The notes beneath the pieces are model-generated. The model saw only the letters and a program-made list of their open reading frames with translations, was not told the DNA's origin and ran no database searches. Positions 9,941-39,210 of a stretch of 64,000 nt of DNA are shown here, piece after piece. Numbering within the stretch: position 1 is the first letter of the stretch; each line of letters opens with the position of its first letter. A program made the translations under genes and the position numbers. The stretch comes from Nemertoderma westbladi. Taxonomy: Eukaryota > Animalia > Xenacoelomorpha. The stretch is taken from NCBI GenBank assembly GCA_032718475.1, contig JAUCBJ010007937.1:1-64000 (forward strand), written 5' to 3'.

Positions 9941-10013
9941 GGAGATTCAGTGCGTATATTAGAAACTGTGATTTTGTATATTTATAGACTTGAATCCCAT
10001 TTTCTGGGAGCGG

Positions 10014-13034: not shown

Positions 13035-13100
13035 ATTATTTTTTGTGCAGAATTTCAACTCATTTAAATTAACCGCTACAAATTAATTGCATTTGTCTGT

Positions 13101-18500: not shown

Positions 18501-21500
18501 AACTCTGTAAGGGAGGGGCTATCACTAAACCCGTCGACTTACTAAAACTAGCTGACGAGATCAAGAACGCTATCACTACCTTAAGATCAATTGGACAACT
18601 TGATTACGGGAATACCCCTACAGTTCTATTAAAGATAATAGGACGACTCCACCATCGACTTCGTCGGGAGTGGAGGAAGGTCGAATACCAGCGAGAGGAG
18701 CGAGGAGGATTCCTAAAATTAGAAGATGTGTACCTTTTAATATCCAGGGAGGCGGTAGTAGAAACTCGATCTAACTACACCGACCAGCACATCGTGGCAG
18801 AAGGAATCACATTGCCCTCTTCAAACCGACAAAAACCCCAGACAACATCCACAAAGACGGCCACTTACGCCACATCGACGGAATCACGACAATTCTCAGA
18901 CGGTAATAGAGTATCTGCGCCTATTGGGACGAAACAGACGAGACAGCAACTCAGCACCGACTTCAACGGCTGCCAATACTGCGAGCATCTAGGTAAGCGG
19001 TATATTGGTCACAAGTTACGAGGTTGTCGACAATTTCGCGAGTTGAACTCGGAAGAACGACGGCTGCAGATACGGCCACTGGACTCTTGTTGGCGGTGTA
19101 CGCGACACGGACACGTCCGTAAGGATTGCCCAAATACCGACACTTGTCCATCCTGTGGACGCAACCATGACGGTCTGCTCCACACGGACAGCCACACGCC
19201 GACGAAACGCTTCGCCAGGGAACACCCGGAAGCAGCAGCGAGATGTGATGCGGCCTACCGAAAACGAGAATCGAAAACGACTCCGACCTTCGTGACACAT
19301 ATTGAGGATTGCTTCTCAGAACAATCCGGATCGTCGGACGAAGAATCAGAAGACGACGACGAATATTCCAATGGAGACGAACAACCGTCGATCGCGCTTC
19401 TAACCACTGACCAACTGAAGGGATTCAGTGTAATCCCGATTAAGATCACTGGCACAAAGGGGAGTAAGAGGATTTACGCGATTCTAGACTCAGCCTCATC
19501 TCACAGTTACGTGGATGAAAAGATAGCTGACGTCGTAACGGATCTCAGACAAGGTAAACACGTCAGTTATACAGTAAGTAGTATGCACGGACAGCGTGCA
19601 ATACCAGTGACACGAGTTAAGTTGGACTTAGACTCTCTTCTTCCAAAATCGCAACACAGCGAGAGGGAGAGGTCTTTGTTACCCTTTAGAGATCTAACCT
19701 TTGCGGCCACGAAGGACTTTAGTAACCTACTAGGTCCAGTGCCGGAACAATCTCTGGAGGACCGTAAGTATTTCAGACACCTTGGTGTACCCGAATGTCC
19801 TGTCAATTATAGATCGGTAGCAATGCTGATCGGGACGGACCAATTCAACCTACATCAGGTGTGGGAAACCAGACCATCGGCAGTTGTAGCAGGAAACGCA
19901 TACGCCTGCAGAACGCCGATAGGGTGGTATACTCGAGCGCCTGTGCGCACACTAGACGTAAGTGACGAGGAAGACGATGTACAGAGTACATGTAGTTTAT
20001 TAACTACAAATTCAATCCATTCCTTTTCACACGACGTGAACCATACTACGCTACAGTCGACAAAACATGACAGACGGGTAACTAGTATGATAAGTCACAA
20101 GGAGCAGCTAACCCACAAGGTGAGTCTAGGACTTGGGGGGAAGACGAGTCAGCTAGAGATTCCATCGACGACAGATGATAGGCTTGCGAGTCTACCTACC
20201 CCAATAACCTCAACAGTGCCCGTCGATATCGACGATGACGCGTTGAAAATTCATCAGTTGGAACAAGCCGCCTTGGACAAAGAATTAACGGAGAAGACTA
20301 TCAGGTGGTTAGAACAAGATACAGCTGAACCTGGTAGCTACGAACCTTGTATGTCGGAACAGGAGAAACAATCTCTAAAGATCATGGAAGATACTATCCG
20401 ACAGACGGAGGACGGACATTACGAGGTGGGGATGTTATGGCGTAGCCAAAGTCCTAAACTTATAAATAACTACCCACTGGCTTTGAGACGTCTACACTCA
20501 ATACGACAACGTCTATTAAAGGACGAGAAAGCCCATCTGCAGTACAACACTCAGATGGAGACGTATTTGACTGAAGGATACGCTATCCGAATGACTAACC
20601 CGGAGCGAGTGACCGACCAGACATACTACCTGCCACATCACTATGTGAGACATCCCGACAAACCAGATAAAGTACGCGTAGTCAATGATTGTGCGGCTCT
20701 ATTTGAGGGAATGTCCCTCAATAGTGAGTTGATGGATGGACCGAACATGAATAATTATCTTATGGGGGTGATTATGCGCTTCCGTCAGCGTCAAGTAGCC
20801 TTTACTTGCGACGTTGAAGCGATGTTTCACCAAGTAAAAGCGTTAGAGCGAGACAGAGACAGTTTGCGGTTCCTCTGGTATCCGGAAGGAGACTTAAGTC
20901 TACCACCAGCGACTTACCAAATGCAAGTTCGCGTCTTCGGTGCCAGAGACAGCCCAAATTGTACGATGTACGCCTTGAAGCAAGCCGCTAGAGATCAGAA
21001 ACATCTATATGACCCAGAGATAATTAGAATTGTAGAACGTGACTTTTACGTCGACGACGGTTTACAGAGTTGCGACACAGTAGAACGTGCTACAACAGTA
21101 GCACATCAATTACGGGACTGCTTGGCGGGCGGAGGTTTTAACCTCACCAAATTCGCCTCAAACAGTGCCGAACTAGTAGACTCATTCGGAACTACTGAGC
21201 GTGGAGGTGGTGACATAGACCTAGAGTTCGAACCACTACCGACGACTAAGGTGTTAGGGCTCTTTTGGGACCCAAACACAGACAACTTTCGAGTGAAGGT
21301 GAGACTGGACAGTCAAGGAAACACACTGACCAAGAGATCATGCTTGTCAAAATTGAGCCGATTGTTCGATCCGTTAGGATTCATCAGTCCAGTGATACTG
21401 CAAGCCCGCATTTATATGCGCAGTATATGGAAGGATGGACTAACATGGGACGAGCCGATCTCATCAGACCAAGTGGACTTATGGAAGACCTGGGAGGCGG

Positions 21501-24415
21501 AATTATCTTCACTAGAGGATTATTTCATACCCAGGGTTTACTTTCCATTACAAAGTACATTTCCTGACAACTTGGAACTACACTGTTTTTCTGACGCCAG
21601 TGACAACGGTTTTGGTGTGGCAGCGTATTTGCGCAGACAAGTAGAATCGGACGAGTTCGATGTTTCGCTCATTACTTCTAAGGCTAAGACCATGCCTACT
21701 AAGTATATGACGACGCCACGAGCCGAGCTACAAGCCGCGACCCTGTCAACCACCATCGTGAACCTCATACAGACAGAACTACAGTCGAGTTTACAGATAT
21801 TTTATTGGACTGACGCGACGTTGGTTTTATTTTACATAAACAACGACACACTCGAATTCAAGACATTCGTAGCTAACCGTCGCGCGGAAATTCTAGACCG
21901 TTCAATAAAGGAGGATTGGCGACATTGTCCCGGACCACAAAACCCAGCTGATATTGCGTCGCGAGGAATGATGCCTGAGGAATTCTGTAAACCGGAGAAC
22001 AAAGAGTTTTGGCAACACGGACCCCAGTTCTTGCAGAAATCGACACAAGATTGGCCTCCGTTATACGACAACAAGTCCAACACCATTCCTAAGGACGCCG
22101 AAATCAAGAAACCAAAAAAGGGGAAGACAAAGAAAAAGACGACGGCGACAAAACTCAAGAAAAAACCGAAGGCGAAATGGAAGGATATAACTTCAAAGGT
22201 CAAGAGAGGAAGACTTGCGAGCCTTTCTACACCAGACATATCGCCAGACGGTCAACCAGACACGTTACTAGACGGTCAACCAGACGTTTTGACAGACATG
22301 TCACAAAATGTTCCACCAGACGTTAGTAACACACTGACAAACAGTGAAGCCGCAGTTTCTCTATTGGAGCGGCCTTCTATTGACAAACAACTAGATACGT
22401 TACCAGACGTATCGCCAGACACATTACTAGACAGTCAACTAGACACTAGTAATGTATTGACTAACAATAAAGCCGCAGTTTCCCTATTGGAGCGGCCTTG
22501 TATTGACAAACTACCAATTTTGACACACTTGAGCAACCATAAGCACGGTGAAACCTCATGTATTACAGATGTGGGTAGTACCTACGCTAATGTAAATACA
22601 GGTGTTACTTTGCGCTCAAGAGACATACCGAACCTGCAACCTACGTTGAGACCTGGGATTAATGTCGGCAGAAAAATAAGTTTACCGAAACCTGCTGACC
22701 CCATAGAGTTCAAACCACCATTAACGATCGACTTACAAAGTACCGACAATCAAGGTAATAGGACAAAAAGGGACAAATTACTTGTAGACCCGGACGGATC
22801 AACAGTCAACAAGGGAATACTTACCGGCGGACCCGTGGGCCCTTCTAGTAATTCAAAACCTTCCAAATTCTCCATTGACTTACCTGATGACGTCACAAAT
22901 ACTCATGTCGACCGTATTGTAAATCTAACAGATTCTTGGTCAAACGCTTGCCGAAAATTAGCGTGGATTGTACGTTTCGTACAATACGTTAAAGGCAAAC
23001 GTGACTTTACACGTCGACTTACATTGGCTGAGATTGACAGGTGTGAGATTAAATTAATTCGCCATTATCAACTGCGATATTTCGCGCGCGAATTCACATC
23101 TATACATCAAGGTCAACCAATCAAGTCGTCACCGATACTGTGTTGGAGTCCGATTATTTACAATGGCTTAATTTGTCATAAATCTCGGCTTCAAAACATT
23201 GACTTTAACACAAACTTTAGGTACCCAATAATAATACCGCAACACCACGAACTACAACGTGCAATGATACTGGACGCACATCTACATCTGAAACACGCTG
23301 GAAGACACCATTGTCTTTCCTACTTACGTACTAGATTTGTATTAATTAGACCCAGTAAAGCATTAAGTTCAGTGACACGTACGTGTATTATTTGTAAAAA
23401 GGTACATTCTAGAATAGGTACCCAAGAAATGAGTGAACTACCACAAGCACGACTTCAAGCATTCAGACCACCTTTTACAGAGACTGGTATTGATTGCTTT
23501 GGTCCCATACATACGAAACGTGGACGTATACTAGTAAAACGCTGGGGACTGATTTTCACATGTATGTCCAGTAGGGCAGTTCATATTGAACGTGTGATGG
23601 ATCTTTCCACCAACGCGTTTATACTAGCACTGCGGCGATTTATCGCTAGACGCGGACTAGTAAAATGCTTGTACTCAGACCAAGGGACAAACTTTGTTGG
23701 TGCTCGGAATGAGATTGCTAGAGCCTTTAAGAAATTAGATCATGATCAAATCTCAAACGAACTGCAACCTCACAAGATTGTTTGGAAGTTCAATCCTCCA
23801 GATAGTCCTTGGAGAGGCGGAGTCTGGGAGAGACTGATTAGATCTATAAAGACAGCAATGGCAAAGGTCATTCCAGTAAACCACATATTAACAGACGACC
23901 AACTGACAACATTGTTTGTTGAAATCGAGGCAATACTAAATACTAGACCAATAGTATTAGTACCCGATGACAAACAATCTCAGTTTGCTTTGACACCGGC
24001 ACACCTGCTAATGCAGGCACCGACGACTTTGACACCGATTTCTATTCCAATAGAAAGCGACAGCTACGGTAGAAAAGCGTGGAAAATCACGCAACTACTG
24101 GCTAACAAATTCTGGGAAATATGGCAAAACCATTATTTGCCCTCTATTTCTGCCAGAACAACATGGTACAATAACACCCGCGCATTAAAGCCGGGAGATC
24201 ACGTGCTGTTGGCAGAAGTGAATCTAAAAAGACGCTTCTGGATAACAGGTGTCATTTTAGCCACACATCCATCTATGGATGGAGTGACAAGAACTGTGAC
24301 GGTACGGACAATTGACGGTCGTACAGTAGACAGACCGACTCAACGTCTCGTACTCCTTGAAGAGACTCGTAACGAGTCTGGAGACTACAAATCTCCACCT
24401 AATACTAGTAAATAA
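15548..24415 (+). CDS. BEL/Pao Gag-Pol polyprotein, 2955 aa, intact
   Basis: Coiled-coil/repeat N-terminus, gag core (PPKFSG), three zinc knuckles, protease ILDSAS, RT YVDD, RNase H FSDAS, integrase HHCC and SDQGTNF...WERL. Confidence 0.96.
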   Translation: MSDKQDYTKNTPTDYDSCDGDKSAAEEQQGKTREPTEPTPCASPVHPTGVPDAVVRGDGRTEDFLTVPQPRYRETEMVSSAGSTESVVRSVGGYMAHITRSIGEGQRILDGLTAPMSRFEFYTLQVRVQSKVYKSVDNLVGLQDLARQRQDMDTQLRILEKLMITREKLIQFKSTIRQIQQEQADQLLGESVSDELLQPEEEQELYRLDGQLKHLTDHLRMCGEDVGDLETVPEYTRETPFAQIESAPEILNQSLVSIRSEICEGSMVTSEVARQQQQFYRQQHEMEEQAQLLMLQAAVEEEKLRVANIARISHLQEQAELEAAEMERLELDIAQQTAAAAAAESERQAASAESERQAAAAESERQAAAAESERQAAAAESERQATAAAAAAKIERNRLVLEARAEMKTRQIKAQSAIRQAELEAQQQQTEQHEKEVKLRFELEKKARELANAKEDLDLQACDRSMRSRDGHDLDQLEVRHRQIQERKKEGSVGAPGRERQLVKDVCQRFPQVTHMFAPVTTKEPISIAGSSDISPIHGVTEHRFVIPDEFTPPRATSSPIPKVKVSNPPITDRSSLLVGPALLTIKQVSPPLTPKPVTHYDYPMTFRPTRPLDSNAVVRPPFNQFTSQSTTSRKTCEPTEQRRTVETRPFNQFTSQSTTSRKTCEPTEQRRTVETRPFNQFTSQSTTSRKTCEPTEQRRTVETRPFNQFTSQSTTSRKTCEPTEQRRSVDDVPKRNVRIRTTQRTRARRPPYPDDSSTSSESDYPKREVFRTGAADEYKRERSDNSFADNPPQNTPTQKALQPTDAISTQQFADILRPVVNKLAQIEERLEEGYTDSSRNSEFEHNRHPKGPQRPVPSNPTSYQGKAPRRDINKNTNQGRETLNVAEEIAKFAARQGLPVQQPPKFSGSSKHWHTFVDYIESQIAVCAFTSREKFNYLLQTLSGEPKRLAETFVGVPDAFELAYDRLTSIYGGTVSMARSVIEELCKGGAITKPVDLLKLADEIKNAITTLRSIGQLDYGNTPTVLLKIIGRLHHRLRREWRKVEYQREERGGFLKLEDVYLLISREAVVETRSNYTDQHIVAEGITLPSSNRQKPQTTSTKTATYATSTESRQFSDGNRVSAPIGTKQTRQQLSTDFNGCQYCEHLGKRYIGHKLRGCRQFRELNSEERRLQIRPLDSCWRCTRHGHVRKDCPNTDTCPSCGRNHDGLLHTDSHTPTKRFAREHPEAAARCDAAYRKRESKTTPTFVTHIEDCFSEQSGSSDEESEDDDEYSNGDEQPSIALLTTDQLKGFSVIPIKITGTKGSKRIYAILDSASSHSYVDEKIADVVTDLRQGKHVSYTVSSMHGQRAIPVTRVKLDLDSLLPKSQHSERERSLLPFRDLTFAATKDFSNLLGPVPEQSLEDRKYFRHLGVPECPVNYRSVAMLIGTDQFNLHQVWETRPSAVVAGNAYACRTPIGWYTRAPVRTLDVSDEEDDVQSTCSLLTTNSIHSFSHDVNHTTLQSTKHDRRVTSMISHKEQLTHKVSLGLGGKTSQLEIPSTTDDRLASLPTPITSTVPVDIDDDALKIHQLEQAALDKELTEKTIRWLEQDTAEPGSYEPCMSEQEKQSLKIMEDTIRQTEDGHYEVGMLWRSQSPKLINNYPLALRRLHSIRQRLLKDEKAHLQYNTQMETYLTEGYAIRMTNPERVTDQTYYLPHHYVRHPDKPDKVRVVNDCAALFEGMSLNSELMDGPNMNNYLMGVIMRFRQRQVAFTCDVEAMFHQVKALERDRDSLRFLWYPEGDLSLPPATYQMQVRVFGARDSPNCTMYALKQAARDQKHLYDPEIIRIVERDFYVDDGLQSCDTVERATTVAHQLRDCLAGGGFNLTKFASNSAELVDSFGTTERGGGDIDLEFEPLPTTKVLGLFWDPNTDNFRVKVRLDSQGNTLTKRSCLSKLSRLFDPLGFISPVILQARIYMRSIWKDGLTWDEPISSDQVDLWKTWEAELSSLEDYFIPRVYFPLQSTFPDNLELHCFSDASDNGFGVAAYLRRQVESDEFDVSLITSKAKTMPTKYMTTPRAELQAATLSTTIVNLIQTELQSSLQIFYWTDATLVLFYINNDTLEFKTFVANRRAEILDRSIKEDWRHCPGPQNPADIASRGMMPEEFCKPENKEFWQHGPQFLQKSTQDWPPLYDNKSNTIPKDAEIKKPKKGKTKKKTTATKLKKKPKAKWKDITSKVKRGRLASLSTPDISPDGQPDTLLDGQPDVLTDMSQNVPPDVSNTLTNSEAAVSLLERPSIDKQLDTLPDVSPDTLLDSQLDTSNVLTNNKAAVSLLERPCIDKLPILTHLSNHKHGETSCITDVGSTYANVNTGVTLRSRDIPNLQPTLRPGINVGRKISLPKPADPIEFKPPLTIDLQSTDNQGNRTKRDKLLVDPDGSTVNKGILTGGPVGPSSNSKPSKFSIDLPDDVTNTHVDRIVNLTDSWSNACRKLAWIVRFVQYVKGKRDFTRRLTLAEIDRCEIKLIRHYQLRYFAREFTSIHQGQPIKSSPILCWSPIIYNGLICHKSRLQNIDFNTNFRYPIIIPQHHELQRAMILDAHLHLKHAGRHHCLSYLRTRFVLIRPSKALSSVTRTCIICKKVHSRIGTQEMSELPQARLQAFRPPFTETGIDCFGPIHTKRGRILVKRWGLIFTCMSSRAVHIERVMDLSTNAFILALRRFIARRGLVKCLYSDQGTNFVGARNEIARAFKKLDHDQISNELQPHKIVWKFNPPDSPWRGGVWERLIRSIKTAMAKVIPVNHILTDDQLTTLFVEIEAILNTRPIVLVPDDKQSQFALTPAHLLMQAPTTLTPISIPIESDSYGRKAWKITQLLANKFWEIWQNHYLPSISARTTWYNNTRALKPGDHVLLAEVNLKRRFWITGVILATHPSMDGVTRTVTVRTIDGRTVDRPTQRLVLLEETRNESGDYKSPPNTSK
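17412..17730 (+). repeat. 84-bp tandem repeat x~4 in gag (PFNQFTSQSTTSRKTCEPTEQRR)
   Basis: Near-perfect in-frame repeats. Confidence 0.9.
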
Positions 24416-25071
24416 TTAGGAGTTTACAAATAGATTCCACGTACCTGTACACCGTAGTAAGGACAGCGGTAGAATTCCATTGTCTTTATATGTGAACATT
24501 GAGGGTAGTACCCTTATGTGTCACATAGGAGCGGGATTTGTAGGTATAAGAAATGGAATTCTACTCGGAACTCACAATATTGAGACATTTTCGAAATTTT
24601 AGACAATCCATTTGGATTTAAAAATTTTTAAAAAATTTCTCCAGTGAATAGATTTCAGGGTACAGTCGGGTGGAACTTAAAATTAGAGAAACAAGAGAGG
24701 AAGACTTGCGAGCCTTTCTTAAAATTTTAATTAAATTTTACACGGTCTTGTTTCAATAAGTTACGTCAAATAGACTCCCCTATATTTATTACTAATTCTT
24801 GATTGCTTATTTTCTGATAATAGTTTGGGATCAAAAAGTGAGTATTTTAGACTCACAGCCAGTTTAGCCCAAATTCGTTTTTACTTCGGCAAAAAATTTT
24901 AGATAAGAAGCAGCGTGTCATTAAAGAAACCCTAGATCTTAGGCTATGGGTAGGAGGTTAGAGCGTTGTCGAGCCCAAAGGGCAGACGAAACTCTCACGT
25001 CTCCTCACAACTAACTACAAACTCTGTTGTATTCCCTCTAGTAGTAATGATTATGTAACTACACCCTAATT

Positions 25072-28000
25072 ATGGAGAAAGGGATACAAGGAGAGCCGAG
25101 ATGGGGATATGATATCCAAGAGGAGGCAGCAGCGCCATTCGAAAGATTTGGAGCCAAGGATTACACTATATTTGGTATAAAAGAATTATCGGAAAGTACA
25201 GCGAAACTCGCGAGAACTAAATATGACTCGAATGTATTAAAGAGAAGGCAAAACGCATTAAACGAAAGAATCGAAAGTTTGCGCCAAACCTTCAACGAAC
25301 TCTACCCGTACGATGCTTTGTGTGATACGGGAGACATTAGCGAAGACCCCGATACTGAAATTAGTCGTTTGTATCATACCATGCAATACCTAAAGGCGCA
25401 CGAACCTATGCCCGCGGTAAGAGATGAATTCGATGGAATGCATCTTTACAGACGAACTCGAGGGGACGATAGAGAAACCAAAGAAGCATTTTCAGTTTAT
25501 AAACTTTATTATCAATGCGGTTCTTGTATGCGCGAACAACGAAATGCGATTCCGATGCGTTTGAATAAGGAAAATCCCGAACCGATATTGGCGAGGTGTT
25601 CGAATCATCAACAACTACGCTACCAGGAAGGAGGGTATCCTTTATCGAATCCATATCATTCATTTGCTATGACCGGACCAAAGGCGGGAGAAACTGTCAT
25701 TTACCCACCTAAGGTTGTTGAACCCGATGTATTTGAACTTACGCTGGACGAGGCGAATCAGTCAACCCGCGAAAAGAAAGAAGCTCTTAGCCTATACAGA
25801 GCCTACAAGGCTTTCGAGAAAGGTGAGATGGAAGAATGGGGTGGAAGACTCGCGAGCCTACCTTGCCATTGGACGTCACACGATCAAACTTCAGCTAAGG
25901 AGATGACACCGGAAGTTTTCGAGAGCATAAACTTCGCTCAAAACGTTATTCAGAGACTACAGATTGCATCCCCGGAGAGGCCAAGAGAAATGCAACCGTA
26001 TAGTACTTCAGCTACGAAACCATTGAGTACGACACTCAATTTCCCTATTAGTATACCAGTCCGACAGGATACGACGTACGAAATACCCATCGTGGATCAT
26101 CCAGAAATCATTTCGAACTTGGAGTTTCTTCCTGCAGTTGTTTTCAGCGATATGAGTAAGATATATGATTTACGTAGACATATTACTCAAAAGGTCGTGA
26201 ACAACGTTCCACCTCATATCCAAGATTTCAAGGAACTGGATAGAGCTGGTGACGACATAGCTCCGAGTAATCTGAAAGGATATCTAACCAAGACGATTCG
26301 TTTATGGATTGGAATCGGAACCTTCGAGTCGGATACAGATATTGCCGCAGATTGGCGAGGTAAGGTTATTCGTTTCGATGAGGATAAGGATATAGAGAAG
26401 ATTTGGCAACCTTCGGAAGAATTGTTGGACGAATGGACTAGGACGTTTAGATCGTTTCAGGAAAACGGTTATATGTTTTACGATAACGAGGGCGGCAGTC
26501 ATCAGCAGAGTTTGACTTCTAAGACTATACAGATTAGAGCAGCGGACGGAGTCCTGCACGTTTTCAGTAGACAGAGGAGCGACAAACGAATGCCGATACC
26601 TCCAGCGAATACAAAGCGACACCATCTTATCACCGATATAGTAAAGAAGATGGACCAAGCTTGTAATATTGACGCTAGAATGCTACCGAAGATGGTAAGA
26701 AACAAGATTTTAGATAAAACTGTTGTAAAGGTTGGATCAGGAGTAAGGGAGGATTTAATTAGCGACTTCGCCGGCATGACGGACAGCGATGACCGACTAC
26801 CGACACCATACGTCGACACTCGACCTCTTATTCTGTGGTCTATAGAACAGGGATATTTTCGTGAGTATAATACTCAGAAGACTGGAACTGGATACATTTC
26901 CTACCTGTTATTCAATTGGGATTATAAGGAAGGTAAAAGAAACAAGTATATTGAAACTTATGGAGAAGGTGATACTCCAGATATGAGTGAGTTTGAATCA
27001 CAGCTTAAATGGAGAGGATGCGTGTATTGGGCTATTACGTCACCTCCAAGAGCGGTCTTACAATATTATTTAGCAATAGAGTCGTCAGTGAATGTTTGCC
27101 TAATCGCCGACATTGTGTCTCGGACTCTCAAAAGACATCCACTTTGTCTCGGAGAAGATCATACGTTCTACATGGAAGGGAGAATTCGTACCGACGTGTT
27201 TAGACGATTCCTTGAACCCTTCTACAACTCCGACGCTCAATGTAATGCCTTTACTCGAGCAGGATTTAGCATATTTCGAGACGTGTATCTTCGCTGTGCG
27301 GGATCTCTTATCGAAAGACCATCTATGTTTACATTGTTACCTTATGAAGGAGAACGTATTGTGGAAATTACGGATGAATCACGGCAGACGCGCGCGCCTA
27401 TCGGTCACCTCGGTGATGATTTCAACGTAACTACTACGATCGCCGACGATCCTTTAGAGGAACTTCTTGAAATAGAAAGGAACCTCCCGAAGAAATCTCA
27501 GACGGAGATTCGACAACTTGAAGCAACAGATGCTATAGTTTGTATACAACCTTCAGAAACCTACCAACCCATAGACCCAGATGATTACGATTATAGTATG
27601 GGAGGAAGCGCTCGACCGATTGGAGATCTTATATACGAACGAGTGTGGTACCCTGCTAATACGATGTGTAGTAAATGTGGCGTCGCTGGACATCATATGG
27701 CAAAGTGCAGTGGAAAGCACATTACTACGACTCAGCTAATCTGTGGATGGTGTGGGGATCAAGGGTCTCATACCTTTTATACTTGCTGGAGATTTATGGC
27801 TCAATGTACTTACTGCAATATAAAAGGACATCGAGCATCTGAATGCCAACTGAGAGACATACCTTATGAACACGAATCTGTTAAACTCGTGAGGAAATTA
27901 TTTGATGAGTGGGAAGATTTGGCCGACGAACATGTATCGGCACAAAGAAGACGGTTTCCGATGAGAGCGCATCTCGGATTTTGGGCGGTAAATCCCCAGA

Positions 28001-28797
28001 CGATGATGTCGGAAGGATATATCTCCGCTATGCCTCAATATGACGAACTTATCGAGGTTGTCGATATTTTGCCCCACGACAGCGGATTCCGAGTGATGCG
28101 CGAGTATCTACTACAGATTCACCCGGATAACAAAAACACGTGGAATTTTCAGAAAGTCGTTAATCGGATTACGTATGGTGAATTCGATCGTTTCCGAACT
28201 GAAAAACGGAACAAGGGAGCTTGGTTAACCGTCGCATGGGCGTACCGAGCCGCGTTTTACCATAAACGTATACGAGTGAGCGTATTCGAGGAAGAAGAGG
28301 TCCTAGAGGCGACGAATATACCAGCCACTCCGGTTGCGCCGTCTGCACGTCACCCTCGGGAGGACGGACAGGGTAGGATCATACGGGTCCAGAAAGTGGG
28401 CCAACAATTGAAGAAAATTATTAATGTAGAAGAACGCAAGGGAGTTGAGCCGACTATTCGAGTTACTCGGGATACGGTATCACTTCCAAGAGAACCAGTA
28501 GGAGGATCGGGACATACACCAGCTGATCAACAGGGGGCGCAAGCTACTCTTGGGTCTGCGTCGTCCGCTTCTCACGCGTTCCCAGACGTTCTACCAACTG
28601 TAGTGACGACTGATCGGTCACGAGGAATTGGTCGAGGTTTTGGGATGCCAAATAGACGAATTTGCGAGGAAATAGTTGCACCGTCTCTCAACGTCCCAAG
28701 TAAACCAGTGACTCGCCCCATTAGTCCCATATCGCGAGCAAAGTCACCTGTGCGCAGTTTTCGAGGACGCGGCAGGGCTCGATCAACTAAGCGATAA
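25072..28797 (+). CDS. Accessory ORF of element B: DEDD(y)-like 3'-5' exonuclease plus 3 CCHC zinc knuckles, 1241 aa
   Basis: YMFYDNEG (ExoI), LPKMV...DKTVVKVGSGVRED (ExoII), YVDT, QYYLAIE (ExoIII-like); CSKCGVAGHHMAKC, CGWCGDQGSHTFYTC, CTYCNIKGHRASEC. Homologous to 39925-42474. Confidence 0.8.
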   Translation: MEKGIQGEPRWGYDIQEEAAAPFERFGAKDYTIFGIKELSESTAKLARTKYDSNVLKRRQNALNERIESLRQTFNELYPYDALCDTGDISEDPDTEISRLYHTMQYLKAHEPMPAVRDEFDGMHLYRRTRGDDRETKEAFSVYKLYYQCGSCMREQRNAIPMRLNKENPEPILARCSNHQQLRYQEGGYPLSNPYHSFAMTGPKAGETVIYPPKVVEPDVFELTLDEANQSTREKKEALSLYRAYKAFEKGEMEEWGGRLASLPCHWTSHDQTSAKEMTPEVFESINFAQNVIQRLQIASPERPREMQPYSTSATKPLSTTLNFPISIPVRQDTTYEIPIVDHPEIISNLEFLPAVVFSDMSKIYDLRRHITQKVVNNVPPHIQDFKELDRAGDDIAPSNLKGYLTKTIRLWIGIGTFESDTDIAADWRGKVIRFDEDKDIEKIWQPSEELLDEWTRTFRSFQENGYMFYDNEGGSHQQSLTSKTIQIRAADGVLHVFSRQRSDKRMPIPPANTKRHHLITDIVKKMDQACNIDARMLPKMVRNKILDKTVVKVGSGVREDLISDFAGMTDSDDRLPTPYVDTRPLILWSIEQGYFREYNTQKTGTGYISYLLFNWDYKEGKRNKYIETYGEGDTPDMSEFESQLKWRGCVYWAITSPPRAVLQYYLAIESSVNVCLIADIVSRTLKRHPLCLGEDHTFYMEGRIRTDVFRRFLEPFYNSDAQCNAFTRAGFSIFRDVYLRCAGSLIERPSMFTLLPYEGERIVEITDESRQTRAPIGHLGDDFNVTTTIADDPLEELLEIERNLPKKSQTEIRQLEATDAIVCIQPSETYQPIDPDDYDYSMGGSARPIGDLIYERVWYPANTMCSKCGVAGHHMAKCSGKHITTTQLICGWCGDQGSHTFYTCWRFMAQCTYCNIKGHRASECQLRDIPYEHESVKLVRKLFDEWEDLADEHVSAQRRRFPMRAHLGFWAVNPQTMMSEGYISAMPQYDELIEVVDILPHDSGFRVMREYLLQIHPDNKNTWNFQKVVNRITYGEFDRFRTEKRNKGAWLTVAWAYRAAFYHKRIRVSVFEEEEVLEATNIPATPVAPSARHPREDGQGRIIRVQKVGQQLKKIINVEERKGVEPTIRVTRDTVSLPREPVGGSGHTPADQQGAQATLGSASSASHAFPDVLPTVVTTDRSRGIGRGFGMPNRRICEEIVAPSLNVPSKPVTRPISPISRAKSPVRSFRGRGRARSTKR

Positions 28798-29532
28798 AAG
28801 GGAGGGCAAGGGTGGACGGAAGACTCGTGAGCCTTTCTTATGATTTGTGATTTATTTGAATTATATGTTTTATATTTAGGAAGTTTTGTATTCTGAAAGG
28901 GACTCATATTTAGTGAAACTTATATTCTATATTTGTGCTTATTCTGAACGCAATTTATATTTTATAAGCAGTATTTGTACCTAAAGAGAAAGTTTTATAG
29001 ACAGAAAATTTTGTGCTCAGAAAGACTCATATTTGTAATTATTCCAAACTTATGCAATCTACATTTAGGTACGAAAGTATTTGTAATTACTTGAATTTAT
29101 GCAATATTTGAGATGCAATAGTAGATGGAAGACTTGCGAGCCTTTCTTATTGTTTTCATTTATTTGTATTTGTAATTGTTTGAATTTTTGCAATATTTGA
29201 GATGCAATAGTAGATGGAAGACTTGCGAGCCTTTCTTATTGTTTTCATTTATTTGTATTTGTAATTGTTTGAATTTATGCAATATTTGAGATGCAATAGA
29301 TTTATATTGGTGAATTTAATTTAGATTTATATTGTACTTACTTAGTAAAGCCTTAAATACGTAAAGTTTGAATTTGTAATTAATTTTGTATCGAATCATT
29401 ACGTAGAAAGGAAGTATTGTTTGAAACTTAATTGTAAATATGTAAGTACGCCCTAAGTATTCTATAGTTTGATTGATTATTGGTGAAAACCGTATATTTT
29501 ATGCACGATAATATCCTGTTTTCATGGAGCGG

Positions 29533-31441
29533 TATAGAATTATATTCCCTAAATGCCGTGGATTTTCAAAATTTTATTTTATTCGGATTAACTTTGTAAA
29601 GATTGCTTTGAGTTCTCACTCGTATTGGTTCTATCTATTATGCATCTATCGGTCAAGTGGTTCAGTAGCTCAGTTGGTAGAGCGTTGGAAATTATATGTG
29701 TAGTAGGTATCGAGTTCGAATCCTAGTAAGTGCGAATTATTTTTTGTGCAGAATTTCAACTCATTTAAATTAACCGCTACAAATTAATTGCATTTGTCTG
29801 TACCAATGAGGCTGTAGTTATTTGATTGTAACCAATGTCGTGCAAGTTATATATTAGCTGGACCAATAGCTATCTTTAAAACCCTGTTAGAACCTATAGA
29901 ACAATCGGGAATTTTCTCGATTGATTGCGGCACAAATTTGGTATAAAAAGGTGCGATTTGTTCATTAGTTGACAATTATATCTATCTAATTCAATCTCAA
30001 TTGCTGATCTACCTTAACTTTCTGTCTTATTTCAGATTACATTGTTTATTGTATAATAGTTATTATATCTTTTGTAATAAAAGTCAGAAATACTAGTCAC
30101 ATCTCAGCCCTTTTCTATCTGTTTTACTATGGTTTCACTACGGTGAACAAACTCAGGGACAGGATGGCCGGCTAGAGATCGGGCCGCAGCAATGAACGGG
30201 AACATCACGGGAATGTAGACGAGAGACAACCCGCAATACCATTTAGAGTTATTCGCCCATCGCCTGAAAGGTTAGACAGCGTTCGATCCTTGCTACCTAA
30301 GTGTAAGACCAAAAGATCAAAAGGTAGACGTAGTGACACGCTGTAAGCCCAAAATTACATCATAGGGACTGTACCGTCTTGATTCAGGAAAAACCCACAG
30401 TAGACCTTCATATTCCTACGGGGGAGGGAGAGAGAGCAGATACTAGTACGCAGATAGGACGTAGGCACACCGGTACAAGGCATACACATTGGTTAGGGTG
30501 CAGCAAACTGTACGCTTAACTCTTGCTAAGTACAGGTGTGTGTGCGACTATTTACAGTACGACAGTGTCCATTACATCAGAACTTGTAGGCTAAGGGGGT
30601 TGCTGTGTTTTCACCTGAATTGGGATTGTACCGTTCAGGCGGTAGGGCAGTTTACACTAGGCGCAAATAAATTGAGGCTATCAGGGATATACTAACATCT
30701 ACCGTGTCCCCGCCAACGCCCTAATAGGAAGTTACCCGGACTACCTGGGTGACTAAAATTCTAGATAGGAGCCAGGATAGCTATTAGTACCCGTACGCCT
30801 ACAGTAGTAAACTAACACATCTCTTCTTAGTATCAGGGACCTGGTACCTAAAATTGCCGAATTCTGGGCGTAGTATTAACCTTATGCCTGAATTTGAGTC
30901 CTGGAAATACGCAAGAGGGGAAGGAACCTTATCATTCGTGAGTATTGGACCTACAAGTTACAAATTTAGAATATTCGTAAATGCACACCGCACCCAGTAA
31001 TTATATATGTGAAGGAGCAAAACTGTTTTGACCGTTCAGAATTAACACACGCGCGTTAGAAATTATTTACACCTCGAAATATATAAAATTAACTTTTGTC
31101 CGTACTGTGCTTTGCCCGCTAGTTAGACATCTCCAAATATCTGCTCTGTACCTAGCTAGCGTCCCTTTGCCCAACCATATAAATCACACCGCGGCAAAGT
31201 ATACGAGCCTCTTAGTCCGTCAGTGAGTCAGCCTGATTTTAGGATTCGCTGCGCGGGATTTTGTTTCATCGAAGTTTGTCTGCTCGTAGACTGTTTTCTG
31301 CCTCACCGGTTATAAGAGATCGATACTGCAATATATTCGCTTACTTAGAGTTTACTGTTTTGGTGAGAAGGTCGGATTTATGATTTGATTCACAAACTTT
31401 ACAGTAGGATATTGCAGGTATTGTTGCTGTCTCTTCAATTA
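29533..31441 (+). repeat. 3' LTR of element B
   Basis: Follows the PPT; followed by TSD GCTTA. Confidence 0.95.
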
Positions 31442-31504
31442 GCTTAATATAGCATATAGTGACAGGACAATTGTCCCTAGACAATTATTATTGCCCTCAA
31501 GACT

Positions 31505-32555
31505 ATTTCCTCCCAATTACACTTATATTTCCACCAAAGACACTTATATTTCCCCCCAATGATACTTATATTTTCCCCCAATTACACTTATATTTCCCTC
31601 TAATTACACTTATATTTCCCCCCAATGACACTTATATTTCCCCCCAATGGCACTTATATTCCCCCCCAATGACACTTATATTTCCCCCCGCCCCAAAGAC
31701 ACTTATATTTTCCCCCAATGACACTTATATTTCCCCCCGCCCCAAAGACACCTATATTTCCCCCAATGACACTTATATTTCCCCCCAATTACACTTATAT
31801 TTCCCCCTAATTACACTTATATTTTGCCAATGATACTTATATTTCACCCAATGACACTTATATTTCCCCCAATGGCACTTATATTTCCCCTCAATGACAC
31901 TTATATTTCCCCCCGCCCCAAAGACACTTATATTTCCCCCAATGACACTTATATTTTCCCCCAATTACACTTATATTTCCCCCTAATTACACTTATATTT
32001 CCCCCCAATGACACTTATATTTCCCCCCAATGATACTTATATTTCCCCCAATGACACTTATATTTCCCCCCAATGACACTTATATCCCCCCCAATGACAC
32101 TTATATTTCCCCCCAATGACTCTTATATTTCCCCCAAATTACACTTATATTTCCCCACAATGACACTTATATTTCCACCCAATCACACTTATATTCCCCC
32201 CCACCCCAATGACACTTATATTTCCCCCCCCCCCCAATGACACTTATATTTCCCCTCAATTACACTTATTTTTTCCTCCAAATACACTTATATTTCCCCC
32301 TAATTACACTTATATTTCCCCCAATGACACTTATATTTCCCCCAATGACACTTATATTTCCCCCCCCCAATGACACTTATATTTCCCCCAATAACACTTA
32401 TATTTCCCCCCGCCCCAAAGATACTTATATTTCCCCCAATGACACTTATATTTCCCCCAATTACACTTATATTTCCCCCTAATTACACTTATATTTCCCC
32501 CCAATGACACTTATATTTCCCCCCAATGACACTTATATTTTCCCCCAATGACACG
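31505..32555. repeat. ~22-bp minisatellite (CCCCCAATGACACTTATATTT)n
   Basis: Degenerate tandem array. Confidence 0.92.
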
Positions 32556-32559
32556 CATA

Positions 32560-34600
32560 TTACGTGCGGCAACTCCTACGCATGTAGGAGTTGCGACCAC
32601 AAGCGGTTTACTCTCGCAACTGAAAGATATGAGTATGAGAACCCTCCAGGAGAAATGCCGGCTCGGTCGTCGCCCGGGTCAACAAGGACCGCGTCCCCCA
32701 GTGGTACACCAGGCTGGGGTCGATAAATTGGCTACTGGAACAGAAGACAGAGAAGAAAGAAGAACCAACCTGCTGAAATGTAAAAAGACACTAAGATTGC
32801 TACAATGAACGCACGCACGCTGAAAGCACAGAGCAAACAGGGTGACATGGTCGCTCTGGCAATGGAATATAACATCGACATCATCTGCATCCAAGAACGT
32901 CGGATTTGTCATGAAGACACTGCCATGAAGTACAATGACATTGGAAATGGATGGACTTTTGTAACAAGCTCAGCAGTAAGAAACTCGGCCAATGCATCAA
33001 TTGGAGGAGTTGGAATTCTGCTAAGTCAATTTGCACTTATGACCCTAAACAACATCGAATCTATAAATTCCAGGGTTATGATAGCAACATTTGAGGGTAA
33101 TCCCAAGACAACAGTAATATGTTGCTACAGTCCAACCAATGCCTCAGAGCCAGAACAAGCAGTCAAGTTTTATGAAGATCTGACTGGACTTATAAAGGAC
33201 ATTCCGAAACACAACGTTAAAGTCATTGCTGGTTACCTGAATGCTCAAATTGGCCCAGAAGACATCAAGGGTTACACACATAACACCAGTTCTAATAGAA
33301 ATGGGTACTTACTTTTAGACCTAATGGAAGAATGTGAATTGATACCAACAAACACCACATTCGAAAAGAGTAAGGGGAAGCTATGGACCTTTCAATACCC
33401 TAATGGAACCAAAGCACAACTGGATTACATCCTCATAAACAAAAAGTGGAGAAACAGCATGATCAACTGCGAGGCATACAGCTCGTTCAACCTAATTGGT
33501 TCGGACCACAGAATTGTGACTGCAGAGATCAGACTCAGTTTGAGAGCCAGCAAACCTAGGACAAGCAAGCAAATCAACTATGACTGGGAGAAACTCAGAA
33601 CTGACAATGCAGTAAAGGATGCTTACACAGTAGAAGATCAAAACCGCTTTGAAGCACTCCAGTCAATGGATGAAGACCAGTCCACCGATTCAATATACCA
33701 GAATATAATAAAAGCCCACAAGGAATCAGCTAAGAGGCATATCCCCCAGAAACCCAAACGAAAACAGTATGTGCCATGGCGAAACTCTGAGGTTACTTGT
33801 AAGAGAGAAGATCTTAAGATAGCCTACAAAGTAAAAACCGAACAACCAACAACCGAAAACATTAACAAGGTTGAGAAAGCTAAGGATGATCTTAAATTGG
33901 CCTACAACATCAGCCAGGAAAAGTACATACAGGATAAAACTGAAGCAATTACAACTGCTCACATACAGCAACAATCAAGACTTACCTGTAATACCAGAAG
34001 TAATCGTTGCTGGCATTGGATTGTTATATTGTGACACAGAAGCGCAGGTACTCTCACCAGATGGTGAAACTGAGTTTTTCTCAATCCTGGCTGGCGTACT
34101 GCAAGGTGACACATTTGCACCATTACTATTTGTAATTGTGCTGGATTACGCAATAAGGACGGCCACAAAGGGTGAAGATCTGGGACTCACACTTCAAGAA
34201 CGCAGAAGTAGTAGATATCCGGCAACTACAGTCACAGACACCGACTTTGCGGATGACATCGCCCTGCTCTCTAATACGCTAGCAGATGTACAGCTTCTAC
34301 TAAATAAAGTGGAGAGGGCTGATAATGAGGTTGGATTGCATATAAATGCTACCAAGACCGAATTCATGACCTTTAATGTTGATGGAAACTTGACAACCAT
34401 TGATAATAATCAACTAAGTAAGGTCGATGACTTCCAGTACCTTGGATCATGGATAGAGAGTAGCAAAAAGGACATAGAAGTTAGGAAAGCAAAGGCTTGG
34501 GTAGCTCTATCAAGAATGGATACCATGTGGAAATCAGATTTCCCCAGGCACCTGAAGACTAAGTTCTTTCGAGCCACAGTGGAAAGTGTATTTTTATTAA
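32560..34600 (+). pseudogene. RTE-type non-LTR retrotransposon, internally deleted and 3' truncated
   Basis: AP endonuclease (TMNARTL, ICIQE, LDYIL, SDHR), then an RT remnant (GVLQGDT, FADD, YLGS); the first RT subdomains are missing near 33985-34030. Confidence 0.88.
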
Positions 34601-34603
34601 GTG

Positions 34604-34757
34604 AATATTCCACATTTTTTCCATAATAATATTACACATTTTTTCCATAATAATATTCCACATTTTTTCCATAATAATATTACACATTTTTTCCATAATA
34701 ATATTACACTTTTTTTCCATAATAATATTACACATTTTTTCCATAATAATATTACAC
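34604..34757. repeat. 24-bp tandem repeat x~6
   Basis: (TACACATTTTTTCCATAATAATAT)n. Confidence 0.9.
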
Positions 34758-34900
34758 ATAATAATTGTTTGTGTTAATTTTGAGTGATTTTTCATGGTTG
34801 AAGAGTAAAATCCACAAATAGTTACTGCATTATATATAAAAAACGAAGAAAATAATTTAAATAGTAATAATAATCTTTCAACATTAATTTCTTAATAAAG

Positions 34901-35067
34901 GTAATTTCTGAAGGGGTTTGGGAACTGAATGTTTTTCAACTGGATGTTGGCGATGTACTAGATGTAACGCTGGTTTTACGTAGCGATAACGAAGTTGACA
35001 CTAGAGAATCGACCTTCACGCAAACAATACGAGTTGTTAATTCCCGTCCACCGGATCTAACCCTAAG
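34901..35067 (+). CDS. Host exon, REJ domain (VISEGVWELN...LDVTLVL...QTIRVVNSRPPDLTL)
   Basis: aataaag acceptor gives phase 0 (matches the exon ending at 12757); gtaaat donor in phase 2; QxIxV...PP REJ pattern. Acceptor choice is inferred from phase. Confidence 0.72.
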
Positions 35068-36477
35068 GTAAATGTTATTCTACCTAACTATAATGTAAAT
35101 TATATTCTACCTAACTATTATGTAAATGTTATTCTACCTAACTATAATGTAAATGTTATTCTACCTAACTATAATGTAAATGTTATTCTACCTAACTATA
35201 ATGTAAATGTTATTCTACCTAACTATTATGTAAATGTTATTCTACCTAACTATAATGTAAATGTTATTCTACCTAACTATTATGTAAATGTTATTCTACC
35301 TAACTATAATGTAAATGTTATTCTACCTAACTATAATGTAAATGTTATTCTACCTAACTATAATGTAAGTGTTATTCTACCTAACTATAATGTAAATGTT
35401 ATTCTACCTAACTATAATGTAAGTGTTATTCTACCTAACTATAATGTAAATGTTATTCTACCTAACTATAATGTAAATGTTATTCTACCTAACTATAATG
35501 TAAATGTTATTCTACCTAACTATAATGTAAGTGTTATTCTACCTAACTATAATGTAAATGTTATTCTACCTAACTATAATGTAAGTGTTATTCTACCTAA
35601 CTATAATGTAAATGTTATTCTACCTAGCTATAATGTAAATGTTATTCTACGTTACTATAATGTAAATTATATTCTACCTAACTATTATGTAAATGTTATT
35701 CTACCTAACTATAATGTAAATGTTATTCTACCTAACTATAATGTAAATGTTATTCTACCTAACTATAATGTAAATGTTATTCTACCTAACTATTATGTAA
35801 ATGTTATTCTACCTAACTATAATGTAAATGTTATTCTACCTAACTATAATGTAAATGTTATTCTACCTAACTATAATGTAAGTGTTATTCTACGTAACTA
35901 TAATGTAAATGTTATTCTACCTAACTATTATGTAAATGTTATTCTACCTAACTATAATGTAAATGTTATTCTACCTAACTATAATGTAAATGTTATTCTA
36001 CCTAACTATAATGTAAATGTTATTCTACCTAACTATAATGTAAATGTTATTCTACCTAACTATAATGTAAGTGTTATTCTACCTAACTATAATGTAAGTG
36101 TTATTCTACCTAACTATAATGTAAATGTTATTCTACCTAACTATAATGTAAGTGTTATTCTACGTAACTATAATGTAAATGTTATTCTACCTAACTATTA
36201 TGTAAATGTTATTCTACCTAACTATAATGTAAATGTTATTCTACCTAACTATAATGTAAATGTTATTCTACCTAACTATAATGTAAATGTTATTCTACCT
36301 AACTATAATGTAAATGTTATTCTACCTAACTATTATGTAAATGTTATTCTACCTAACTATAATGTAATTGTTATTCTACCTAACTATAATGTAAGTGTTA
36401 TTCTACCTAACTATAATGTAAATGAAATTCTGCCTAACTACCTAACTATAATGTAAATGTTATTCTACCTAACTATA
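35068..36477. repeat. 27-bp satellite, ~52 copies (GTAAATGTTATTCTACCTAACTATAAT)n
   Basis: Highly homogeneous tandem array starting at the exon donor site. Confidence 0.95.
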
Positions 36478-36479
36478 TA

Positions 36480-36921
36480 TCACGACTAACTCTACCTATC
36501 TAACACGAGTGGCAGGGATGGGGAAACCCAACAAATGGGAGGGCCGCACATGGCGGCTAAAACTGGTTAGTCAACACGTAGGTAGAACTGTGTAATAAGT
36601 TTCCATACAATTTCCATATATCTGTTACCCAATATTAATTGTGTTCAATTGTCTATTATCTACTGCGGATGTCGGACGGTTTTTGACCGTCGTCGTTGCG
36701 TGTAGTACTTTGATTGTGCTGTAATCTATTTACCGGTATTTATACACATATCAGCTATTATTAACAACGATAAAGCAATAACTCTTTTAACTCTGTTATT
36801 CATACCGGCCTGCAGCCTTTTCAACCTTGATAGTCATCACAAGCGCGGCGATGCGTACTACTGTATACCACGACATAGAATTTCCCAGTCGGGATCCTTT
36901 GCCAACTCGGATCCCGTCACA
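36480..36921 (+). mobile_element. Probable solo LTR distantly related to the C family
   Basis: Ends GGATCCCGTCACA like C-family LTRs; ATATA on both sides (36475-36479, 36922-36926); left boundary ambiguous. Confidence 0.5.
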
Positions 36922-37011
36922 ATATAAGTTATGTTCAATCGAACCGCCTTTTAGTCTTCAAATAGGTATATATCTTGATTGATCGCCTCACATGGGCCAG
37001 GGCAGTTTTCG

Positions 37012-37204
37012 TTTCGGCACGAATGCATTAAAGGGACCAGCCAGGGCGCATCTCTGCCTTGCATCCTTAAGTGGTAGCTAAATGAGTACTCGAGTTTCCT
37101 CTGGGGAGTAAAGTTCTGGGGGGAACGCACTGGAAATAAGTCGTCAGACTTTGTGCGTAATCCCTGGCCTAGCGGCCGAAGAAAATTTACTTTTTTTTAC
37201 TTTT
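37012..37204 (+). repeat. SINE-like interspersed repeat, copy 2
   Basis: Matches 11208-11398. Confidence 0.6.
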
Positions 37205-37251
37205 GCTATTAAGATATGCTAAATAATATTTAAGTAACTTTTTTTTTGTAG

Positions 37252-37451
37252 ATGTGTTACCAACTGCAAGGAGAAACTCAACCCAGATGGTGTTTTTATT
37301 GCGATAGCGGAATGTGGTAATTGCGCGGATGAATATCCTGATGCCACCTACCATTGGCTGCTGGAATGCCATGGTTACAACCAGGAAAAATGCCAAACTG
37401 CGGGAAATATCGCTAATTTTCAATCCGATTTCGATGTGGCTCAAAATGACG
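37252..37451 (+). CDS. Host exon, REJ domain (RCVTNCKEKLNPDG...CGNC...YHWLL...)
   Basis: T-tract+tag acceptor, gttagt donor, phase 2->1 compatible; CxxNC..K.NP...CxxC...YxWxL REJ signature. Confidence 0.82.
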
Positions 37452-38680: not shown

Positions 38681-39210
38681 TGTGACGGAATCCAGGAGGG
38701 ATCCCGATTTATCCGGTATTTAGTTCACGCGTCCCCGCCGTGTATAAAGAGTGAATGAAAGTAAAATGAGTTCTGAAGTTCGGTGTATAATAATAGAGGT
38801 ATAAGATATAGATATATTGTATAGTATATGGAAGGCGGGATACGGTAACTAAAAGTCCCGTGCTCCCCTATCTAAACTAATTAACCTATGCTAGCACTAC
38901 TGCACTGAGATAACTGAATTACTGATATTGGGTTACTGGTTATATTGCACGGTTGGCCTGATTACTACCTAATCGATGCCTTGCCCCCCTCTGATTGGTT
39001 GATACCCTTGTTGGCGCCCTTTGGAGTGTTCCCGTTCACTCCACCTATTCTCTCTGGGTTAGGGGTTTGGCCCCTGACCCTCTATTGTGTGCTTCCTTCC
39101 CATTCTTATTGGGATGGCACGAGTTGGTTAATTATCCAATCTCGTGGCTCCCAATATTGCTTATCGGCTTATAACTTTATGGGGTGTTAGCGGGATTGAA
39201 TAAGCTAACA
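38681..39210 (-). repeat. 3' LTR of element C
   Basis: Direct repeat of 51527-52056. Confidence 0.95.

Follow-up and report, generated by a model that had tools for sequence, protein, structure and literature searches.

What does a retrotransposon of the BEL/Pao lineage encode between its integrase and its polypurine tract (PPT), the place where an env-like gene is usually described? The question is raised by 64,000 nt of the Nemertoderma westbladi genome (assembly GCA_032718475.1, contig JAUCBJ010007937.1, positions 1..64,000 of the forward strand), a stretch that we call the window and whose numbering we use throughout. Element A, a long terminal repeat (LTR) element of BEL/Pao type, carries in that place an intact open reading frame (ORF), and element B, a divergent element of the same type, carries a homologue. 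Judged from sequence, the best assignment for a domain of both products is likely an exonuclease of the WRN/EXD/mut-7/RNase D type (PF01612-like); three zinc knuckles of the CCHC type lie downstream of it. The features of element A that are needed for the argument are these:

12832..31441, forward strand: element A, BEL/Pao-type LTR element, 18,610 bp
12827..12831 (left) and 31442..31446 (right), forward strand: 5-bp target-site duplication, from comparison of the flanking sequences
12832..14740, forward strand: 5' LTR, 1909 bp, TA...TA ends (self-BLAST 99.95% over 1910 bp, one mismatch)
14741..14751, forward strand: position of the primer-binding site (PBS), first bases not TGG
15548..24415, forward strand: gag-pol, intact, 2955 aa, BEL/Pao-type
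25072..28797, forward strand: accessory ORF, 1241 aa, no stops
26359..27186, forward strand: predicted DEDDy-type 3'-5' exonuclease domain, aa 430-705, with D471, E473, D561, Y666 and E670
27667..27846, forward strand: three CCHC zinc knuckles, aa 866-925
29526..29532, forward strand: short purine-rich tract at the PPT position, abutting the 3' LTR
29533..31441, forward strand: 3' LTR, from self-BLAST

The accessory ORF starts 656 nt past the end of gag-pol and lies upstream of the purine tract and the 3' LTR. An earlier note on this DNA, made from the letters alone, had described it as an intact 1241-aa sense frame between integrase and PPT, and it is indeed free of stops and enclosed by the LTRs. 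Its product would consist of an N-terminal stretch of 430 aa without assignment, the predicted exonuclease domain, an acidic linker, the three knuckles, a short conserved stretch and a basic tail. The DxE, KVGSGVRED and YxxxE motifs named in that note were all found where it had placed them (D471 at 26482, KVGSGVRED at 26728-26754, Y666..E670 at 27067-27081). Its knuckles were also correctly positioned (27667, CX2CX4HX4C; 27742, CX2CX5HX4C; the third at 27805-27846), but the middle one is a variant and the Pfam zf-CCHC match to A is weak (E 0.024 with the whole protein and 0.0048 with a fragment, under the curated cut-off); among PDB sequences, nucleocapsid proteins matched the knuckle region weakly (E 0.11-0.26). 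The N-terminal 430 aa gave no detectable match to the ORF of element B (77 of 500 shuffles reached the score) or to Pfam/NCBIfam. In agreement with the absence of env features noted earlier, no membrane segment was evident in the product of either ORF (highest 19-residue Kyte-Doolittle mean 1.38 in A and 1.32 in B); the N-termini of both are charged, and the combination of signal peptide and transmembrane anchor typical of env was found in neither.

Element B, 11 kb from A, provides the comparison on which much of the assignment depends:

38681..52056, reverse strand: element B, 13.4-kb BEL/Pao-type element, LTRs at 51527-52056 and 38681-39210
42909-47894, reverse strand: pol frame of B
39925..42474, reverse strand: accessory ORF of B, 849 aa, after integrase, with D117, E119, D192, Y289 and E293; knuckles at aa 617-673

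The LTRs of B (530 bp, TG..CA ends, duplication ATTAA) differ by 3 mismatches, its gag region is broken over several reading frames, and its Pol protein is 30-34% identical to that of A. The accessory protein of B has the same layout of DxE, KVGS..RED and YxxxE, three knuckles, and a basic tail with motifs resembling nuclear localization signals (NLS). Over the exonuclease region it is 24% identical to A (BLASTP E 4e-6), over the knuckle region 26% (E 6e-8), and in both cases 0 of 500 shuffles reached the score, whereas for the stretch C-terminal to the knuckles 6 of 500 did. The accessory gene is thus conserved in at least two divergent BEL/Pao families, and its linkage to BEL/Pao, as proposed in the earlier note, holds in both. 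Three short GGTAC..GTACC hairpins were also seen at 42650-42770 (reverse strand), in the spacer of B between pol and the accessory ORF.

We consider it very probable that the accessory domain has the DEDDy fold. The DxE of ExoI follows a hydrophobic strand in A (D471/E473) and B (D117/E119), the ExoII aspartate lies within a KVG....D block in both (D561 in A, D192 in B), and all four acidic positions and the tyrosine are kept between two proteins that are about 25% identical, which suggests selection on metal binding. Column shuffles with the ExoII block held fixed produced a conserved DxE upstream together with Yxxx[DE] downstream 16 times in 20000, and 0 times in 20000 when the hydrophobic lead-in was required as well. 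In MAFFT alignments, D471, E473, G555 and D561 fell in columns invariant with PF01612 enzymes, and D471/E473 and D117/E119 in columns invariant with bacterial members, a comparison set chosen with the ExoII KVG....D block itself. B aligned in register with the family through ExoI, the strands after it, ExoII, the D-x-Q motif and ExoIII, and the ExoI region of A alone gave a weak match to a DnaQ family (NCBIfam PRK06309, E 0.03). Among ESM Atlas features, PF01612 was found in 25 of the 30 hits for A and in as many for B, with scores of 0.92 and 0.94; the shared features numbered 162 for A, below the 170 typical of true members, and 168 for B. Of the 64 parts of a metagenome collection, 53 were scanned with a DNA pattern made from A and B alone. 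The pattern detected 119 loci, and these, with one viral locus, yielded 83 motif-bearing ORFs in 24 clusters. All 8 tested members of the largest cluster (40 ORFs, 28 distinct) were PF01612, with WRN, EXD2 and mut-7 as the nearest solved relatives in PDB, as against 0 of 4 tested from the other clusters.

A fold model of the B domain, obtained with 49 bacterial exonucleases and A in the alignment and hence partly circular and without a control, reached a predicted local distance difference test (pLDDT) of 70.6. Foldseek placed Trypanosoma brucei RNase D (TbRND) first (E 8.5e-6); Nibbler, WRN, TbRND and EXD1 matched with Z 12.0-12.2 (root-mean-square deviation 3.1-3.9, 167-187 aligned), and Egalitarian (Z 11.6), EXD2 (8.8), RNase D and giant-virus exonucleases were further matches. 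WRN and the proofreading domains of A-family polymerases were within the tied top matches, at Z 12-13. As the Z scores are tied, no subfamily stands out, and the assisted model indicates compatibility with the fold, not independent proof of it.

A second body of results weighs against this assignment. A search with PF01612 in Pfam at E values up to 10 gave no hit for A or B. The local profile-profile score by hhalign (probability 67%, E 5e-5) was reached by 76 of 150 nulls that kept the ExoII block; it is carried by those 24 residues, and masking them ends its significance. The fold model described above is that of B and not of A, which folded from its single sequence reached a pLDDT of 31, and MAFFT mis-registered ExoIII of A in the family alignments. 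In both proteins ExoIII is YxxxE and not YxxxD (Y666/E670; Y289/E293), and the spacings between motifs (90/105 and 75/97) exceed those of the family (59/65). In 5.8 billion proteins, searched without longer, fused forms, no relatives were found, whether region 420-960 of A was compared with proteins of near length (3587 candidates), region 440-950 with shorter ones (2597 candidates), or the A+B alignment was the query (7996 scored). The A+B exonuclease profile found 0 matches at E 0.001 among 1.84 billion representatives; a PDB sequence search with the A domain gave no match, and with the A+B profile chance matches only. Neither the metagenome and viral contig scans nor tblastn of the B domain against phages and plasmids yielded relatives. 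Given the ExoIII glutamate and the want of a Pfam-level score, we regard the domain as a divergent DEDDy-like variant and not as a canonical member of any family tested. The DEDDy domain of the WRN-exo/EXD1/EXD2/mut-7 kind proposed in the earlier note stands as the best, PF01612-like, assignment, short of the expected ExoIII residue and of a Pfam hit; in the profile and fold checks of the kind that it suggested, the assisted B model, with its DnaQ-type matches, fits the fold but is partly circular, the model of A alone was unusable, and the profile score amounts to the ExoII block.

The ORF belongs to a well-delimited element. Gag-Pol of A contains DUF1759, CCHC, the protease motif DSAS, the reverse transcriptase motif YVDD, Peptidase_A17 (Pfam, E 9e-42), integrase, Integrase_H2C2 and DUF5641, that is, the order protease, reverse transcriptase, RNase H, integrase with the domains specific to BEL/Pao, and direct LTRs with a target-site duplication are present as in that group. 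The boundary is ambiguous by one base, such that a 1910-bp LTR with a 4-bp duplication fits equally. Since the LTRs are one base apart and flanked by the 5-bp duplication, the accessory ORF belongs to a recently inserted 18.6-kb element. The profile of the Belpaoviridae issued by the ICTV, the international body for virus taxonomy, names no genes but gag, pol and an env-like one, and gives a size of 4.2-10 kb, LTRs of 0.2-1.2 kb and an 18-nt PBS with complementarity to the 3' end of a tRNA (PMC8742986). A lies outside both ranges (18,610 bp, LTR 1909 bp), and B (13,376 bp, LTR 530 bp) exceeds that of total length; no TGG follows the LTR in A or B, and pairing with the LTR is found at that site instead. 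Without a tRNA-type PBS, they are classed in the BEL/Pao lineage by their Pol domains and not as typical semotiviruses. The LTRs of A are unusually long and end in TA...TA in place of TG...CA.

Is the accessory gene expressed and kept by selection? We compared four public runs with element A; none of the runs listed as carrying it is on record as RNA, and the kind of run X1 is not on record. A contig of X1 carries a joint that defines the following feature:

15159..25041, forward strand: GT..AG intron that would give a subgenomic message for the accessory ORF, from the contig joint in run X1 and the site sequences

The joint (15158/25042) occurs in one contig with a depth of 210.9 and a shorter side of 29 letters, and was seen in 1 of the 4 runs. 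The donor reads GG|GTGAGT, and the acceptor, preceded by a pyrimidine tract and ACTAAC, lies 30 nt ahead of the accessory ATG, with a 3-codon upstream frame between them. Were X1 a DNA run, the joint would still show the existence of a spliced form, and the accessory ORF is likely expressed from its own spliced message. The depth of X1 rises toward A-rich places and the 3' end as that of poly(A) RNA would, which contig depth cannot show, and this was not used. The 5' leader of A also has a strong splice-acceptor-like site (14955-14981), which lies upstream of the donor at 15158 and may mark off a small internal exon; none of the 15 joints listed, out of 66, uses this acceptor.

Over an 801-nt exonuclease stretch there were 95 differences among copies, of which the 40 with the best support comprised 28 synonymous and 12 non-synonymous changes and 0 stops. 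The ratio of non-synonymous to synonymous polymorphism (pN/pS) on these 40 was 0.11-0.18 depending on the transition weight (p at most 1e-7), and among them the codons of E473 and D561 have silent changes only. No indel is listed over the 801 nt in any run, with covering contigs down to about 81-83% identity. This is evidence of purifying selection among copies of the accessory ORF; the comparison between copies that the earlier note had called for thus points in the purifying direction. Copies with 2-kb internal deletions that remove the exonuclease domain were also seen in three runs (joints 25211-27244 and 25231-27356), and further joints correspond to deletions inside pol of A.

The distribution of the gene is patchy within the window itself, as seen from a third element:

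2488..11207, forward strand: element C, third BEL/Pao element, with breaks in pol

Pol of C is 39-43% identical to that of A, closer to A than B is, and when all 1064 frames of at least 30 aa in the window were searched with a profile, no exonuclease ORF was found in C, which carries just a 137-aa ORF (9527-9940) ahead of its 3' LTR. The accessory gene is either ancient and lost from C or was exchanged between families; as C is broken, decay is also possible. At the 5' end of C there is a 3' fragment of the B family (1478-2682, 93%).

The elements of the window also share a signature at the site where a tRNA primer would be expected, and A bears a dispersed motif of its own:

13708..13718, forward strand: candidate self-primer segment in the LTR of A, able to pair with the 11 nt that follow the LTR (14741..14751)
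51700-51691 with 51526-51517, reverse strand: self-pairing of B, 0/300 shuffles
1006-1016 with 245-235, reverse strand: self-pairing of the LTR of a third family, 11 bp, 1/300 shuffles
15636..29232, forward strand: 17-nt motif, 11 exact sense-strand copies at seven places in A, 0.02 expected by chance

Pairing in A extends over 11 bp with one G.U (0/300 shuffles), or over 8 bp without it (9/300), and a variant at 13710, common in three runs, falls on that G.U position. Three BEL/Pao families in the window thus have 10-11 nt that could pair with their own LTR and no TGG primer site, a Tf1-like signature of self-priming. The primer segment of A begins on an initiator-like sequence (by the initiator consensus), with a separate TATA/initiator about 440 nt upstream of it and the first AATAAA upstream as well, an arrangement that suggests a pair of promoters and a pair of poly(A) sites. 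Within U3 of the same LTR (12955-13035) a tRNA-like stretch with A-box and B-box was noticed by eye, for which ARAGORN and Rfam made no call. The copies of the 17-nt motif, a candidate cis-element (15636; four within 17448-17716; 22208; 24699; 25843; 28818; 29127 and 29216), occur within gag and pol, within the accessory ORF and in non-coding DNA, in two reading frames, and their predicted folds are inconsistent (-2.0 to -7.6 kcal/mol, differing structures). No copy occurs in B or C, and B has no comparable dispersed repeat; as the motif is absent from B, no link to the accessory protein is shown.

Juno and Vesta are gypsy-like elements. In these bdelloid LTR elements and in Athena/Terminon, the available portions of a 2017 report describe ORF3s encoding DEDDy exonucleases with a DEED motif, for which RNA 3'-end processing or mut-7-like silencing was proposed, with no activity shown there and no clear link between the nuclease ORF and copy number (PMC5408684); two reviews restate these findings. 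The architecture that the earlier note believed undescribed therefore has precedents in kind, in these ORF3s and in the exonuclease with CCHC knuckles of TbRND, as far as the accessible text of both sources goes (PMC5408684; PMC7797062). Like the genes of A and B, the bdelloid ORF3 is described there as an enzymatic, non-env ORF downstream of pol, with an RNase D/mut-7/WRN-type domain with altered acids, without a transmembrane segment and present in particular families, and the same roles were proposed. Compared by these descriptions only, it differs in its hosts (Juno/Vesta and Penelope-like elements, not BEL/Pao), in its acidic set (DEED, as against D-E-D-E in A and B) and in the knuckles, since the available text reports no CCHC, just a Cys-His-Cys motif in two families, where A and B have three; the ORFs of A and B are moreover 849-1241 aa long, and the present case adds a splice joint and signs of purifying selection.

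TbRND (PDB 7c42/7c4c), according to the accessible part of its description, joins a DEDD exonuclease to four C-terminal CCHC knuckles, which strongly enhance RNA binding and cleavage (PMC7797062). The likeness to A and B, of architecture only, lies in the DEDD domain followed by tandem C-terminal knuckles, and TbRND was the top Foldseek match of the B model. In that same text it is a cellular, mitochondrial enzyme with canonical DEDD and a 28-aa linker, while A and B are element-encoded, with three knuckles after a linker of 160-300 aa and a glutamate in ExoIII; the likeness need not reflect orthology. WRN, EXD2, mut-7/Nibbler, EXD1 and Egalitarian (PF01612) share with A and B the LP..V......K.KVG....D block, the DxE, the Y-x3-acid and a W before ExoIII, but are 11-21% identical, and A and B lie below the Pfam threshold with large insertions. 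With the env-like third ORF of BEL/Pao, the genes of A and B share the place between integrase and PPT and, as described for env in the parts of the sources available, a spliced subgenomic message (PMC8742986; PMC3118150); unlike it, they lack a hydrophobic segment, contain few N-glycosylation sequons (2 and 1) and carry nuclease and knuckle motifs instead. The full-text literature searched, which leaves Repbase, Dfam, GyDB, subscription journals and supplements outside, yielded no BEL/Pao exonuclease ORF, and the word 'exonuclease' occurs 0 times in the main text of PMC3118150, PMC8556966 and PMC6238403. New relative to that literature are the BEL/Pao host, the fusion to knuckles, and the evidence of selection and splicing.

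How might such a protein act? We propose that a DEDDy-type 3'-to-5' exoribonuclease is made from its own spliced message, apart from Gag-Pol; its three knuckles would hold single-stranded RNA and feed the 3' end to the active site, where the core would remove nucleotides, and the targets in trans would be host small silencing RNAs or their precursors, destroyed or mis-trimmed. By analogy with TbRND, the knuckles probably serve as an RNA clamp, and with slightly less assurance we expect that the domain is a catalytically active RNase. Overall, we infer host silencing RNA as the target tentatively, at rather less than even confidence. It is ranked as the likeliest target because separate production from Gag-Pol and absence from the close relative C would suit a host-facing accessory gene; the absence of the ORF from C, closer to A in Pol, was counted for a dispensable role of this kind. 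On the other side, mature piRNAs (PIWI-interacting RNAs), which bear 2'-O-methylation, withstand many 3' exonucleases; C, a broken element, may have lost the ORF through plain decay; and the splice joint comes from one contig in one run of unrecorded kind. The most specific form of the proposal, a BEL/Pao lineage with its own small-RNA-degrading exonuclease (DEDDy core plus knuckles, from a spliced message) as a dedicated suppressor of piRNA and small interfering RNA (siRNA), in self-priming elements of which one family bears a 17-nt RNA tag, appears rather doubtful.

The nuclease might instead act on the RNA of the element itself: once this had been cut just beyond the LTR stretch pairing with the PBS, the enzyme would remove the unpaired tail as far as the duplex, polishing the 3' end of the self-primer for reverse transcriptase. 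The pairing of A, B and the third family with their own LTRs makes primer trimming a real rival, one that we nevertheless hold to be unlikely. The RNase H of Tf1 makes the primer alone. The third window family pairs likewise (11 bp, 1/300) and its relative C (LTR 79% alike) has no exonuclease ORF, and a protein outside Gag-Pol would need its own route into particles; in favour are the lack of TGG in A and B along with their 10-11 nt pairing (0/300 shuffles each), and the trimming of structured-RNA 3' ends by DEDDy enzymes reported in the accessible portions of PMC5408684. In our judgement an adaptor role is improbable in equal measure: a domain derived from an exonuclease, but scarcely active or inactive in the manner of EXD1, Maelstrom and Egalitarian, would bind the element RNA, perhaps at the 17-nt motif, for export, transport or packaging. 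The non-canonical glutamate in ExoIII, the basic tails with NLS-like motifs in B, the 11 sense-strand copies of the motif across A, and the place of EXD1 (Z 12.0) and Egalitarian (Z 11.6) within the near-tied structural matches would all suit it, but four acids and a tyrosine kept between A and B at about 25% identity would not, and neither would a B element devoid of the motif or of any comparable dispersed repeat.

Nidovirus ExoN is the analogy behind a DNA-directed or mismatch-editing enzyme, which would proofread or trim the ends of complementary DNA (cDNA) in reverse transcription and aid an unusually long genome. WRN and the A-family polymerase proofreading domains are in the tied top matches (Z 12-13), and A and B, at 18.6 and 13.4 kb, exceed the 4.2-10 kb of the family (PMC8742986); however, much larger LTR elements, Ogre and Burro, are described without such a domain in the available portions of PMC6431247, tandem CCHC on a DEDD domain points to RNA in the one solved example, TbRND, and the protein is separate from Pol, so that we find editing of cDNA quite improbable. 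More improbable still is a coincidental resemblance of the motifs in some other fold. The lack of a Pfam hit, a profile score from one block and an unusable unassisted fold would agree with coincidence; against it stand the motif order (16/20000), the Atlas agreement for both proteins, the register of B from ExoI to ExoIII and the weak independent DnaQ match to ExoI. Least credible of all is a passenger ORF that does nothing for the element, whether it inserted independently or is a host gene captured recently: its patchy presence and absence from C would fit, but the same position in two divergent families, intact intronless frames, a dedicated splice acceptor and purifying selection largely refute it.

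Apart from these elements, the window contains two near-identical 2.6-kb non-LTR reverse transcriptase segments (99.7%) within 52151-59554 (reverse strand), on either side of an ORF of 667 aa; this ORF has a Cys-rich N-terminus and Ser/Thr repeats, and a further reverse transcriptase-like region begins in it. Beside A, tandem arrays of 22 bp and 27 bp lie at 31450-32600 and 34922-36480, and between them is an endonuclease-bearing non-LTR remnant (32805-34626).

Nuclease ORFs that take the place of env have awaited a function since the rotifer report of 2017. Here, two young, divergent elements keep an intact ORF under purifying selection and so offer two natural proteins, with clear catalytic positions, for assay, and for the RNA-binding module of A and B a structural analogue has been solved. 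Should host small RNA be the target, the protein would be an enzymatic counter-defence of an animal retrotransposon against the piRNA/siRNA system; if the target is the self-primer or the cDNA, it would represent a new step in LTR replication.

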